Shown here piece by piece: positions 17,053 through 20,601 of a stretch of 33,129 nt of DNA. The stretch spans positions 1 through 33,129 of the IMG/VR virus record IMGVR_UViG_2579778745_000007. One strand, 5' to 3'. This DNA is from a virus. Lineage: Duplodnaviria > Heunggongvirae > Uroviricota > Caudoviricetes. Made by a program: the position numbers and the translations under genes. Each line of letters begins with the position of its first letter. Within the stretch, counting starts at the first letter, position 1. Under the pieces are notes generated by a model that was not told where the DNA came from, made no database searches, and worked only from the letters and a program-made list of their open reading frames with translations.

Positions 17053-17754
17053 TTATTCTGATTCTCGCTCAAAAAACGAGCTAATAAGGGGAAGCCAATC
17101 CTCTGACACTTCGCGAGGTCGCGGTTTGCCGTGGAAAAAGATTATTCGGCAGTCCTTTGGTAATGCCCCATTCCCCCTGGAGTAACGCGCGCTCGCATAT
17201 TTTGAACCAGGTTCCACAACATCGGCCTTGTAACTTACAAACCATCCTGGATACAGATCCTGAAATGCTGGTGTATCATCGCCCATAACCTTCCGTAAGA
17301 ACCCCTGATCACCCCAGCACTCAGTAGTGACACAACGAGAAATCCAACCTTCCGGATCTTGCCAGAATGAACTCCAGATATGCGCTTTAACACTATTTGG
17401 TATCCACAAGGCACCGCTGCCACGATATTGTGGATGGTAAAAATCCCTAAGCATGGTGAAGCTGGTTGGTGGATGCTCTAGGATTGGGCGTATATCACCG
17501 GCAATAACCGTGTCCAAATCCAGATAGAACAGATCATCGGTTATATCCGGTCGGAACAACTCGATTTTCGCCCACCAGCCACGGCACTTTTGCCACTGGT
17601 TGATCAATGGGACAACTTTGACGCCAGGTACATGTAAACGCTTCAGGTCTGTCAGGCAAATAATTTCATAGCCTTTTGGCAGTTGATTAACCAGCCACTG
17701 CACATCGGAAGCGTTATAGTCACCACCAGAGCGAAAAACTAAAGCAATCTTCAT
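17053..17754 (-). CDS. Hypothetical enzyme, possible GT-A-like nucleotide-sugar transferase (233 aa)
   Basis: Hydrophobic stretch followed by DLD (LFYLDLDTV), resembling a DxD motif; weak call. Confidence 0.3.
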
Positions 17755-18443
17755 GCTGCACCATCACCTTTCACTTTCATCAATGTCAGGTTTCCGCAAA
17801 ATACGGCACCAGTGTCGATATACTGCTGATTCCAGAATGTCTTCGGGCTTTTCACCGGAGTGTGACCAAAGATAAAACGATCTGCGCCCGAAATTTCGCC
17901 ACCAATATCATCCATCGAATCACTGATACGCTCGCGCGCCCAGACAACGTTGAAAAGCGGCACCTCCTTACCGAATTGGTATTCATTATCCGGATAGTCG
18001 GCATGGGCTATAACGATAGTTTCTTGCCCGGTGTTCAACTCAATGATATAGGGCAGACGCTTTACCAGCTCCACCAGCGCCCAGGCTAATATTTCCTGAT
18101 CAGTGTCCAGCATGAAGAACCATTGTCCGCCATTCATTAGCCAGTTATTCACGTTGCCATCTGGACTTAACGCATCAATCATCAGCCGCTCATGGTTCCC
18201 CATCACTGCCCTGAACCAGGGCATCTGCAATAGTTCCAGACATTCGACATTTTCAGTACCGCGATCGATAAGGTCGCCGACCGATATCAGTAAATCCTGC
18301 GCCGGGTCAAAATCCACACGATGGAGTTCGGACATCAGTCTGGTGTAGCAACCATGCAGATCACCAACAACCCAGACATTCCTGTATTTGGTACCGTCGA
18401 TACGGTGATAAATTGTGGGTGCCATCATGTATTCTTCAGCCAT
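17751..18443 (-). CDS. Ser/Thr protein phosphatase, PPP family (lambda NinI / PrpA-like)
   Basis: Metallophosphatase motifs GDLHG, GDLIDRG, GNHE. Confidence 0.85.
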
Positions 18444-19051
18444 TCTTTAAGAGTCATCTGCGGAATACCTCCCATTTTCCCGCATGAAACAACGTCAATC
18501 CGTTCACGCGCAGACTGGAATAACAAAGGCAGGTGACTTAGATTTTTTGGCGTGCCGCCGGAGTGAACGCGTGGTTCTTGTGTAGCGTCAACGCCCACCA
18601 GGGCGACATGTTTGAATCCGATATGGAAAGCCAGGTTCAGAGCGCCATATGCACTATTGCCGCTGGCAATTTCATTCTCATCTTCGCAAAGTCCGAAATG
18701 TGCGGACCAGCGCCACGCCCACCACTCGGGAGAATTCGTATTTTTTGGCTCCATGCCACGTTCAGCCACACGACGGAAGCACAGAACGCCGTCTCTGACT
18801 TCACGTTCTTTAACATCGGGTAGTGCCATGCAATAACAAACACCACGGCGACGGCGGCCACGACCAACGCGCCGCATATTGTCTGGCGATGGATCAAGTG
18901 TGAAAAAATAAGAAGCGCGGTTCAGCCAGTCGATGGCCCCATTGACCGCTATAATCGGCACTCCGCGCGGCGCAACAAAGTTTGCGGCGCTTGGGCCACT
19001 GCCGACGATAATAACGCGATCACTGCCTCTAAATTTATTCTTGGGAAACAT
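18425..19051 (-). CDS. Hypothetical Rossmann-like protein with GSGPS motif (paralog A, 208 aa)
   Basis: N-terminal IIVGSGPS and IIAVNGA motifs; resemblance to DUF115/MptE-like fold is from memory. Confidence 0.4.
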
Positions 19052-19611
19052 TGAATTGCACTGCTCCTACTTGCATTCAAAATATGTAAATCTGCGTGTT
19101 TTTTGCGGGTATCCAGGAACTGCTGTTGCCATTTTGAAATAGACACCTGCGTTGGATTCCGTAGGGCTTGAGGGTGCGCGCCATGCCAATGAAGGCCGTT
19201 TTGCAGAGAACAGTCATAGCCGACTAATACCACTACTTCAGCCCCTGATTCAGCAGCCAGACTGATAGCCTGCGCGCCGCTATTTACCCCTTCCGCCGGT
19301 CCACAATATCGCCTGTACTCCAACGAAAATGATTTCGCCGCCGCCAGGTTGGCTGTCACTTTGCGGAATCTCCCTCCCGGTATGGTGGATCCGTATTGCT
19401 TCCACCATGACAAATCACCGGCGTATAAGGCATAAATGTCATCGAACATCTGCCAGGAATTGTTAACCGCGATGATTGAACAGCCAGTTTTTTCTATAGC
19501 AGCACAGTCCTCACGAGTGAGTGACGGACCGCTACCGACACAAAAAACAGTCCTAGTCGCCCTGGGTGGTATGTTCATTCTCAGCTGCAAATTCAGCCTC
19601 CAGGCGAGCAT
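18949..19611 (-). CDS. Hypothetical Rossmann-like protein with GSGPS motif (paralog B, 220 aa)
   Basis: FCVGSGPS and IIAVNNS motifs parallel paralog A; 3' end overlaps paralog A start by 103 nt in another frame; alternative start at 19578. Confidence 0.4.
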   Translation of the reverse strand: MLAWRLNLQLRMNIPPRATRTVFCVGSGPSLTREDCAAIEKTGCSIIAVNNSWQMFDDIYALYAGDLSWWKQYGSTIPGGRFRKVTANLAAAKSFSLEYRRYCGPAEGVNSGAQAISLAAESGAEVVVLVGYDCSLQNGLHWHGAHPQALRNPTQVSISKWQQQFLDTRKKHADLHILNASRSSAIQCFPRINLEAVIALLSSAVAQAPQTLLRRAECRL

Positions 19612-19774
19612 TCATTTCAGCGATTACAGGGTCCACTACAGCATCTGTTTCCTGTTCATTACGCGGCATGATCGATGCCAGCGATTCATAATTAGCCTTG
19701 GATGACACGACTATTCTCCCGATGTTAATGTGCGCTATATCAAATGGCGCATATGTACTAATTAATTTATTATT

Positions 19775-20353
19775 TTAAGCAGCATACAACCACTTGTCGC
19801 CGTTCAATACATGCTCAATAGCCTCACCCTTTTTAAGGCTTATGTATTCCAGGATGGCGGTTATCGCTTGTTCTGCACCATACGCAAGAACGACGTAGTA
19901 ACCTTCCTCTCTAAGCCTGCGCATCCAGGCGATCTGCTCTTTCGTCGGGGCTTTACCATTTGGTTCTTTAAGCTCAATTCGCATGCCGTGATAAATACCG
20001 CATGCTTTATCGAGACTCATGTCCGGATAACCTTTTTTCTGCCCTTCAGCCTTCATTTTCCCGGCGGTTGCTTTTGAACGTTTCCCTCCGTTAGGCGTTG
20101 CATGCAACAGCTCATAGATGTCAGGGTGCTTGCGTTCGAAGTAATCAAAAATGAAAACCTGCTCGAAGTGCTCGCAATTTCCGTCGCGCAGGTCTGGGTT
20201 CTTTGCAAGTGCTGCAAGTGCCTTCGCATGTGGAGAAACTTCTTTTACCGGCGCAAGCGATAAGAATGGATCCTTTTTGGTTTTTGGCCCGGGCCGCCCC
20301 TTATTTCGACGCTCACTAAAAGCCTGAAACTCTTCCTCAGTAAAGCGCAACAT
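19775..20353 (-). CDS. VRR-NUC-like PD-(D/E)xK nuclease-domain protein (192 aa)
   Basis: C-terminal GYPDMSLD ... GMRIELKEP pattern typical of VRR-NUC. Confidence 0.5.
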   Translation of the reverse strand: MLRFTEEEFQAFSERRNKGRPGPKTKKDPFLSLAPVKEVSPHAKALAALAKNPDLRDGNCEHFEQVFIFDYFERKHPDIYELLHATPNGGKRSKATAGKMKAEGQKKGYPDMSLDKACGIYHGMRIELKEPNGKAPTKEQIAWMRRLREEGYYVVLAYGAEQAITAILEYISLKKGEAIEHVLNGDKWLYAA

Positions 20354-20355
20354 AA

Positions 20356-20601
20356 TCAGTCAAATCCTGCCGGTCGCATGCCATATTTACGCTGTTTTGC
20401 GGCCTGCTCTTCCCTGTGCCATTGCGCACATTCAGCGTCACAATAAATGCCTGATTCAATCGATTCATTGCAGTAACGACACTTCCCTGTAAATACCTGG
20501 CTCACGACCTGTGCCTGCTTTCTGATGTTATCGATGGCCATGTCTTTGAGAGCTTCTAACTGATTCATGCTCAGCTCTGCATCATCAACACGTTCTGCCA
20601 A
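20356..20601 (-). CDS. DksA/TraR-family C4 zinc-finger protein (81 aa)
   Basis: CRYC-x12-CDAEC cysteine pairs near C-terminus; first gene of minus-strand operon. Confidence 0.5.
   Translation of the reverse strand: MAERVDDAELSMNQLEALKDMAIDNIRKQAQVVSQVFTGKCRYCNESIESGIYCDAECAQWHREEQAAKQRKYGMRPAGFD

Follow-up and report, generated by a model that had tools for sequence, protein, structure and literature searches.

The pmgO, pmgP and pmgQ genes of a P1-type phage-plasmid, together with the unlinked gene dbn, likely constitute a mobile glycosyltransferase cassette whose target is likely a protein. They lie in a 3.5-kb block (positions 17,053 to 20,601) of a 33,129-nucleotide stretch of caudoviricete DNA (IMG/VR record IMGVR_UViG_2579778745_000007, positions 1 to 33,129; hereafter the window). 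A first-pass annotation, made from the sequence alone, had read this block as a single operon for nucleotide-sugar or DNA/protein modification. We propose a three-part mosaic, composed of pmgL and pmgM, an inserted ppp gene, and a mobile pmgO-pmgP-pmgQ cassette that would work in the cytoplasm and glycosylate a phage protein, most likely one of the virion (head). We regard this proposal as evenly poised.

By nucleotide comparison the block is 99.1% identical to Escherichia phage RCS47 and, over its full length, 98.3-98.8% identical to P1, P7, SJ46 and other P1-type phage-plasmids; the source of the window is a P1-type phage-plasmid, and the block is P1 pmgL-pmgQ (pmgL, pmgM, pmgN, pmgO, pmgP, ppp and pmgQ). 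All six open reading frames (ORFs) described in the first-pass annotation are present in the ORF list on the minus strand where it had placed them, while a seventh, pmgN, was missed. The combination, which was not recognized at the time as a described system, consists of named P1 genes with existing RefSeq and PHROGs labels, including "alpha-2,3-sialyltransferase" for PmgO and "glycosyltransferase" for PmgQ. Gene names were read from the records of P1 (AF234172) and P7 (AF503408); in P7, pmgL, pmgM, pmgN, pmgO, pmgP, ppp and pmgQ are called upf81.0, upf81.2, hdmA, hdmB, hdmC, ppp and hdmD, respectively. The annotation of the P1 genes dates from 2004, and "pmg", for "putative morphogenetic function", is a placeholder label. 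The genes are thus long sequenced and named, with functions that are only putative, and the literature on function yielded nothing for DUF115 in phage, for the hdm gene names or for sialyltransferase in combination with capsid.

Co-inheritance reveals which of these genes belong together. Loci around homologs were drawn from assemblies, genomes and viral contigs and annotated with three family profiles and Pfam-labelled reference proteins, and their ORFs were called by homology (plain ORF calling gave spurious antisense ORFs in high-GC loci). The viral-contig scan with a P1-centred PmgP alignment returned P1-like loci only and was rerun with an alignment headed by a distant sequence. PmgO, PmgP and PmgQ are contiguous in unrelated phages, and they are also found fused. 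Among 1.84 billion cluster representatives searched there are 594 PmgP relatives, which include PmgP+PmgQ fusions (P0220, P0288), a PmgQ+PmgP fusion (P0305) and a triple fusion of PmgQ, PmgP and an S-adenosylmethionine (SAM)-dependent methyltransferase (P0269), and a metagenomic phage encodes PmgO and PmgP as a single protein (P0051). A methyltransferase of 189 residues, identified by Pfam, also stands between PmgP and PmgQ in locus L097, and same-sized unlabelled ORFs occupy the PmgP/PmgQ junction in L113, L118 and L121.

The cassette can also take in dbn, which in P1 belongs to a separate operon. Escherichia phage EP_H11 has the genes arranged as PmgO-PmgP-Dbn-PmgQ, with the Dbn homolog (phmmer E = 8.5e-96) in the slot that ppp occupies in P1, and this position supports the view that dbn belongs with pmgO, pmgP and pmgQ; the link to the GT-B gene that the first-pass annotation had drawn is therefore well founded. 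A Dbn homolog also lies a few kilobases from the cassette genes in L104 and L120. The EP_H11 cassette (L186, OP688485) spans 5471-8160, and its PmgP homolog at 5971-6606 has no gene annotation in the record.

PmgO and PmgP, which had been described as two paralogs that share GSGPS and IAVN motifs, are by profile comparison true, distant paralogs. Their BLASTP match is limited to the GSGPS/IIAVN stretch, but the two family profiles (33 and 49 homologs, with the O+P fusion protein excluded) align over 164 columns in hhalign with a probability of 98% and E = 1.7e-13. PmgO carries the motifs GSGPS, AVN, NSG, GYDCS and HWHG, and PmgP carries GSGPS, AVNGA, GNSA, GVD and HLP. In structure models the closest solved fold for both is the Maf flagellin glycosyltransferase (5mu5; 14.1 for PmgO and 13.5 for PmgP), followed by the archaeal pterin pyrophosphokinase MptE (8sd5; 11.2 and 12.7), the Campylobacter sialyltransferase Cst-I (2p56; 10.4 and 10.8), and thiamine pyrophosphokinases and animal sialyltransferases (7-10). 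Both proteins are therefore similar in fold to solved members of the MptE-like/Maf/GT42 group, and both families keep the N-terminal G-x-G-P-S loop and the S-G...G-x-D motif. G-x-G-P-S, AVN, N-S-G/A and G-x-D align to two motif blocks of the sialyltransferase Cst-II, with weak E-values. All 49 of 49 PmgP homologs match the MptE-like Pfam family PF01973, each below the cut-off, which the P0051 fusion passes at 44.6 bits, and the Escherichia coli protein WaaZ matches the same family (E = 6.9e-7). A single-sequence search of the PDB with PmgO gave only noise. A joint alignment headed by the O+P fusion misplaced the PmgO family on the PmgP half and was not used for structure prediction.

The reading frames of pmgO and pmgP overlap by 103 nucleotides (18949-19051). 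The PmgO tail encoded there is unconserved, and the model is of low confidence from about residue 180 (predicted local distance difference test score below 50 at residues 193-199). At its other end, the annotated pmgO start overlaps pmgN by 59 nucleotides, and starting instead at an internal ATG, at 19578, would make this overlap smaller. As annotated, PmgO is 220 amino acids long, compared with 180-205 in most homologs.

PmgQ had been described as a DxD-containing possible glycosyltransferase, and profile searches strengthen that suggestion. The family profile (35 homologs) matches AgtA (6mw5, E = 5.9e-7), the GT8 structure 5gvv (E = 0.002) and glycogenin (E = 0.015) in the PDB, and aligns with E. 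coli WaaJ in hhalign over 152 columns (E = 4e-4) with the DxD motif in register. D79-L-D81 is invariant in the 35 sequences and aligns to the DAD of AgtA, glycogenin and WaaJ; H208 is likewise invariant, but falls 1-2 positions off the His of AgtA and glycogenin in the alignment. PmgQ matches PHROG 1962, "glycosyltransferase". Since no Pfam family, including Glyco_transf_8, is matched at E <= 0.1, we refer to PmgQ as GT8-like and not as a GT8 member. Dbn matches Pfam Glycos_transf_1 with E = 1.5e-5 and 25.1 bits, against a cut-off of 26.4, and its single-sequence PDB search produced noise only. Taken together, fold, profiles, synteny and natural fusions support the conclusion that PmgO, PmgP and PmgQ are glycosyltransferase-like and act together.

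The genomic neighbourhoods of the cassette favour glycosylation of the virion, one of the targets that the first-pass annotation had offered. The cassette comes directly after the major capsid gene, or one short ORF later, in HK97-type siphophages or prophages of at least seven distinct lineages. These post-capsid loci (L086, L087, L097, L098, L106, L116 and L118) invariably encode PmgP and PmgQ and usually PmgO, and head-completion and tail genes follow; Pseudomonas, Ochrobactrum, Zhongshania and Methylophilaceae are among their named sources. Phage D3 has a lone PmgO homolog, orf7, at the post-capsid position. In other genomes the cassette separates Rz from the small terminase gene (Citrobacter rodentium prophage L004, isolated as phage phiNP), adjoins lysis genes (L003, L104 and L108) or, in P1-like phages, has pmgR and pmgS after it. 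Five enterobacterial genomes (L091-L095, Pseudescherichia and related) have homologs of pmgO, pmgP and pmgQ intermingled, on both strands, with adhesin genes, which encode an inverse autotransporter of 1166 residues (IAT_beta and seven Big_1 domains) and two more Big_1 proteins, one of them with RCC1 repeats (for example, L091:2342-8263); these loci may be dedicated adhesin-glycosylation islands. All named hosts are Proteobacteria.

Several smaller observations concern the post-capsid loci. In D3 (L184, NC_002484), orf7 is annotated from position 5951, without the ASGPSL nucleotide-binding loop, and the open frame reaches 5813 (5813-6409), which takes in the loop and overlaps orf6.5. The D3 head-tail block also holds orf12 (275 amino acids, no Pfam match) and the methyltransferase gene orf13. 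A conserved ORF of about 95 codons stands between the capsid gene and the PmgO homolog (L097:6283-6567, L113:5061-5357, L116:421-705 and L184:5691-5978), and the C-terminal half of its product is basic and rich in Ser, Ala and Pro (for example, SASQVAPASQ and LSASPVAPASRKK). It could encode a small head protein or an acceptor substrate, although, because it overlaps the longer PmgO frame in D3, it may not be a real gene. A short Ser-containing C-terminal tail, present in nearly all of the neighbouring HK97-type capsid proteins, was also considered as an acceptor site, but gp5 of HK97, which lacks the cassette, ends likewise (...GTFSSGS), and we therefore dropped this tail as evidence and regard it as a family trait.

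From the gene identities, paralogy, folds, co-inheritance, fusions and neighbourhoods we infer enzymatic activities, donors and an acceptor. The cassette would consist of three soluble glycosyltransferases, assisted in P1 by the unlinked GT-B enzyme Dbn; a Pfam search of PmgO, PmgP and PmgQ found no membrane or secretion domain, and the main text of a P1 virion proteome study names none of the three. PmgO and PmgP share their fold with enzymes that use acidic sugars activated with cytidine monophosphate (CMP), such as Maf, GT42 sialyltransferases and WaaZ. Because the block has no phage genes for sugar-nucleotide synthesis, the donor would have to be a host sugar, and the likeliest is CMP-3-deoxy-D-manno-octulosonic acid (CMP-Kdo), given the CMP-sugar-enzyme fold and the fact that all named hosts are Proteobacteria, all of which make CMP-Kdo. 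PmgQ would act as a retaining, metal-dependent GT8-like enzyme that uses a uridine diphosphate (UDP)-hexose. Upon derepression from the C1 repressor, and from a late promoter, the cassette would be expressed and a short glycan assembled in the cytoplasm on a phage protein, most likely a virion (head) protein. The benefit likely lies outside the laboratory, for example in particle shielding or stability.

Published genetics is compatible with this proposal. In-frame deletions of pmgL, pmgM, pmgN, pmgO, pmgP, pmgQ, ppp and dbn cause no plaquing defect, and plating of the same deletions is unchanged on EcoK, EcoA and EcoB hosts (PMC9024508). CRISPR interference (CRISPRi) knock-downs of pmgL, pmgM, pmgO, pmgP, pmgQ, ppp and dbn are neutral as well (PMC10695390). 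The dispensability of the cassette genes fits a decorative role. The deletion data also contradict anti-restriction hypermodification, the other suggestion of the first-pass annotation.

In its boldest form, which we consider rather unlikely, the proposal would be that P1 and many phages of Proteobacteria put a short Kdo-containing glycan on a virion protein in the cytoplasm by means of two Maf/WaaZ-like CMP-sugar transferases and a GT8-like enzyme, sometimes supplemented by Dbn or a methyltransferase, and that the same cassette acts on Ig-repeat adhesins in some enterobacteria. Such a system would, as far as we know, be without precedent in two respects, as virion glycosylation by Gram-negative phages and as attachment of Kdo to a protein.

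A number of observations weigh against glycosylation of a virion protein. P1 virion proteins are not reported to carry any glycan, we know of no precedent for protein-linked Kdo, and the capsid-adjacent position of the cassette is circumstantial evidence. About 20 kb separate the cassette from capsid gene 23 in P1 itself, and in EP_H11 it stands amid small genes annotated only as hypothetical proteins. At the level of sequence, PmgO and PmgP score 23.4 and 21.0 bits against PF01973, below the gathering score of 34.6; the PmgP profile has no match among PDB sequences; and direct hhalign comparison of PmgO and PmgP with WaaZ is weak (probabilities of 15% and 12%, confined to or centred on the S-G...G-x-D region), while the Pfam family that they have in common with WaaZ is reached only below threshold.

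It is unlikely, though far from negligible, that the cassette instead remodels the host envelope, with PmgO and PmgP adding Kdo to the lipopolysaccharide inner core in the manner of WaaZ and with PmgQ and Dbn adding hexoses in the manner of WaaJ/WaaO and WaaG. The P1 receptor is the terminal glucose of the lipopolysaccharide core, and it would be masked or lost on infected cells and debris, leading to less superinfection or less loss of progeny. WaaZ has its MptE-like Pfam match in common with PmgO and PmgP, PmgQ aligns to WaaJ with the DxD motif in register, and GT8 and GT4 are the classic families of core assembly. All cassette enzymes are cytoplasmic and soluble, as core transferases are, the named hosts are Gram-negative only, and the cassette lies beside lysis genes in lambdoid prophages. 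In addition, a third Kdo that depends on WaaZ accompanies outer-core truncation (PMC6358824). However, the recurrent post-capsid and adhesin-island positions are unlike those of envelope-conversion genes, and PmgP is 52-62% identical across Ochrobactrum, Pseudomonas, Methylophilaceae and Escherichia despite their differing core structures. Moreover, C1 operators keep the cassette genes of P1 repressed in a lysogen, a single lytic cycle of lipopolysaccharide synthesis cannot replace the molecules already on the cell, and the direct homology to WaaZ is weak. We continue to prefer a virion protein as the target.

The fold of PmgO and PmgP would also suit pyrophosphokinases of the MptE or thiamine-pyrophosphokinase type that make a diphosphorylated cofactor or signal. 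Fold alone cannot separate a CMP-sugar transferase from a pyrophosphokinase, but the partner genes do: fusions to glycosyltransferases fit a pyrophosphokinase poorly, and we regard this function as quite improbable.

The first-pass annotation placed all of its genes in one modification pathway, and part of that idea survives in the glycosyltransferase-like unit of PmgO, PmgP and PmgQ. An extension of it to all seven genes, in which the phosphatase, the nuclease and the zinc finger work with the glycosyltransferases, is in our view very improbable. In its favour, the genes are neighbours on one strand, their reading frames overlap or abut, and transcription from a late promoter ahead of pmgL could cover the whole set. 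Yet PmgL, PmgM and PmgN were seen only in P1-like genomes among the loci compared, and Ppp is variable even there (absent from L111, L117, L119 and L120), replaced by Dbn in EP_H11 and absent from every non-P1 locus compared, so that PmgL, PmgM and Ppp fail the test of co-occurrence; an internal operator and promoter, furthermore, split pmgM from pmgN. Because PmgL and PmgM are limited to P1-like phages and several P1 relatives, like all non-P1 loci, lack Ppp, the pmgL-pmgQ block is, as judged by gene content, a mosaic and not a single pathway, and ppp appears to have been inserted at the pmgP/pmgQ junction in some members of the P1 lineage only.

The individual assignments of these neighbouring genes largely held up. 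The TraR/DksA-type zinc finger protein, PmgL, matches PHROG 54, "DksA-like zinc-finger protein" (E = 1.6e-12), and has no match to Pfam zf-dskA_traR at E <= 0.1. Its four Cys residues are arranged as C41-x2-C44-x9-C54-x3-C58, which departs from the canonical TraR/DksA C4 zinc finger spacing of CxxC-x17-CxxC. The VRR-NUC nuclease-like protein, PmgM, matches the solved VRR-NUC structure 4qbl over residues 77-180 (phmmer E = 3.6e-17), with an intact catalytic motif (GYPD...IELK aligned to GYPD...IEIK of 4qbl), and PHROG 5702, "Holliday junction resolvase" (E = 5e-27); it reaches 21.2 bits for Pfam VRR_NUC, slightly under the cut-off of 23.8. By homology and motif, PmgM is a bona fide member of the VRR-NUC nuclease family, with a domain at about residues 77-180 and 75 uncharacterised N-terminal residues. 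PmgL and PmgM probably serve DNA metabolism or regulation. The lambda NinI-type phosphatase, Ppp, is well above the cut-off for Pfam Metallophos (E = 9e-16, 59.3 bits versus 21.5), matches NCBIfam PRK11439 (PrpA-type; E = 3.3e-81, 272.5 bits, under the equivalog cut-off of 326) and the NinI-like PHROG 246 (E = 5e-113), and contains the three motifs GDLHG, GDLIDRG and GNHE in its translation. As for pmgN, its CRISPRi knock-down cuts P1 plating about 70-fold (efficiency of plating, 1.4e-2; PMC10695390); simple polarity fails to explain this effect, given that P1 tolerates the in-frame deletion and that knocking down the genes downstream is neutral.

The earlier description of the block as a single minus-strand operon is right about the strand, but the block probably comprises two transcription units, because the P1 annotation, which we transferred to the window at 98.5% identity, puts the C1 operator Oppp/Op83 and the sigma-70 promoter PpmgN between pmgM and pmgN. 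A promoter-like GCGACA-17-TAAAAT on the minus strand of the window (19800-19772) lies at the PpmgN position. Oppp/Op83 is degenerate, with 5 mismatches to the operator consensus, and was not recovered in a consensus scan of the window that allowed up to 3 mismatches. Upstream of pmgL the P1 annotation also has a C1 operator, together with a late promoter that could read through both units, and downstream of pmgQ it has two operators; consensus matches near the block are found at 20659-20675 (2 mismatches), 17035-17051 (minus strand) and 16986-17002 (plus strand). With C1 operators flanking and interrupting it, the block would be repressed in the lysogen and expressed after induction. Across the whole window, the scan found 11 matches compared with 0.19 expected, including a perfect site at 30796-30812, a density consistent with a P1-type immunity circuit.

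Finally, it is extremely unlikely that the operon hypermodifies phage DNA with sugars against restriction: T-even phage glycosyltransferases do glucosylate DNA, and nuclease and phosphatase genes lie nearby, but P1 DNA is a classical substrate of ordinary restriction enzymes, genes for making a modifiable base are absent from the region, the cassette neighbours are head, lysis and adhesin genes rather than replication genes, and deletion of every gene leaves plating on the three restricting hosts unchanged, as described above.

Table 1. Genes and control regions of the pmgL-pmgQ block, and dbn, with positions in the window
Feature	Position	Strand	Description and basis
pmgL	20356-20601	-	81-amino-acid zinc-finger protein; ORF list, PHROG, P1 annotation
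pmgM	19775-20353	-	VRR-NUC (PD-(D/E)xK) nuclease; 4qbl match, PHROG
pmgN	19553-19708	-	51-codon ORF; PHROG 2350 (E = 1.2e-37), P1 annotation
pmgO	18949-19611	-	Glycosyltransferase-like, Maf/MptE/GT42-type fold; first cassette member
pmgP	18425-19051	-	Distant paralog of pmgO, same fold; second cassette member
ppp	17751-18443	-	Lambda NinI/PrpA-type PPP-family Ser/Thr phosphatase
pmgQ	17053-17754	-	GT8-like (retaining GT-A) glycosyltransferase; third cassette member
dbn	25546-26520	-	GT-B (GT4-like) glycosyltransferase; separate P1 operon
pmgM 3' end and intergenic region	19709-19800	-	Operator Oppp (Op83) and sigma-70 promoter PpmgN per P1 annotation
Two C1 operators (P1 Op86a/b)	16986-17051		Close the block and control the next unit, pmgR-pmgS; consensus matches, P1 annotation
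Divergent control region pmgL/gene 26	20602-20747		Op82 (20659-20675), late promoters LPpmgL and LP26

Two other features of the window deserve mention. A complete type I restriction-modification system (8616-14645, plus strand) encodes HsdM (520 amino acids), HsdS (410 amino acids) and HsdR (1038 amino acids, with an EcoR124-type C-terminus) in a stretch of low GC content (0.40-0.44 versus about 0.48). It looks like inserted cargo, because P1 has pmgT to humD at the corresponding position. The product of pap (14910-15416, minus strand), annotated in P1 as "acid phosphatase", matches Pfam HAD_PNKP (E = 5.2e-12), a HAD-type phosphatase domain known from polynucleotide kinase-phosphatase. This match points to a role in nucleic-acid end healing and away from a general acid phosphatase.

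E. coli genetics relies on P1 as its standard transducing phage, and phage engineering uses it as a chassis, yet about one-third of its genes still have placeholder names. Our findings give pmgO, pmgP, pmgQ and dbn a concrete, testable function in place of "morphogenetic", and deletion strains exist. If a virion protein is the target, particle glycosylation would extend from mycobacteriophages to Gram-negative phages, with a bearing on antibody recognition and phage therapy, and a small enzyme set would become available for glyco-engineering phage particles in E. coli; if lipopolysaccharide is the target, the cassette would represent a new receptor-masking mechanism of the lytic cycle. The block also carries a caution, in that adjacent enzyme genes in mosaic phage genomes need not form a single pathway.

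Among the known systems, Maf exceeds 600 residues, with flanking domains, whereas PmgO and PmgP, at about 200 residues each, amount to the catalytic domain alone and are 16-19% identical to 5mu5, and Maf donors are CMP-pseudaminic or CMP-legionaminic acid, neither of which E. coli K-12 makes. The GT42 enzymes Cst-I and Cst-II of Campylobacter differ in that their sequence E-values against PmgO and PmgP are only 0.04-0.4, in that no residue of PmgO or PmgP aligns clearly with the catalytic His188 of Cst-II, and in that neither the phage nor K-12 has a sialic acid pathway. Ppp and PmgM, by contrast, are ordinary relatives of lambda NinI and the VRR-NUC resolvases (4qbl) by sequence and motifs, and ppp and pmgM can both be deleted from P1 without a plating defect.

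Dedicated adhesin glycosyltransferases offer a parallel for the enterobacterial loci. The heptosyltransferases AAH and TibC, as well as HMW1C, glycosylate autotransporter adhesins in the cytoplasm, and the interleaving of pmgO, pmgP and pmgQ homologs with Big_1 adhesin genes in L091-L095 reproduces this arrangement; the enzyme families are not the same, and the likeness is one of gene arrangement alone. Among the lipopolysaccharide core enzymes, WaaZ shares a Pfam family with PmgO and PmgP, and WaaJ, like WaaO a GT8 enzyme, aligns with PmgQ; the donors would be CMP-Kdo and UDP-hexose, which are present in every host. On the other hand, the probabilities of PmgO and PmgP against WaaZ, which adds the third Kdo to that core (PMC6358824), are 12-15%, and the phage genes stand beside head, lysis or adhesin genes, not envelope genes.

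The closest parallel in biology is found in mycobacteriophages, in which, according to genome announcements that cite Freeman et al. 2023, tandem phage glycosyltransferases modify the capsid, and in cluster O also the tail tube, and weaken antibody recognition (PMC11256854, PMC11600133); cluster O is described there as using an O-methyltransferase and three tandem glycosyltransferases on capsid and tail tube (PMC11600133). As far as these citing announcements allow a comparison, the hosts of the P1 cassette differ in being Gram-negative, two of its three enzymes are Maf/GT42-like, which suggests an acidic CMP-sugar donor, and a glycan is reported in the mycobacteriophages but on neither P1 nor any of its relatives. 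Like the mycobacteriophage system, however, the P1 cassette is a tandem array, is joined by a methyltransferase in some relatives, and is dispensable.

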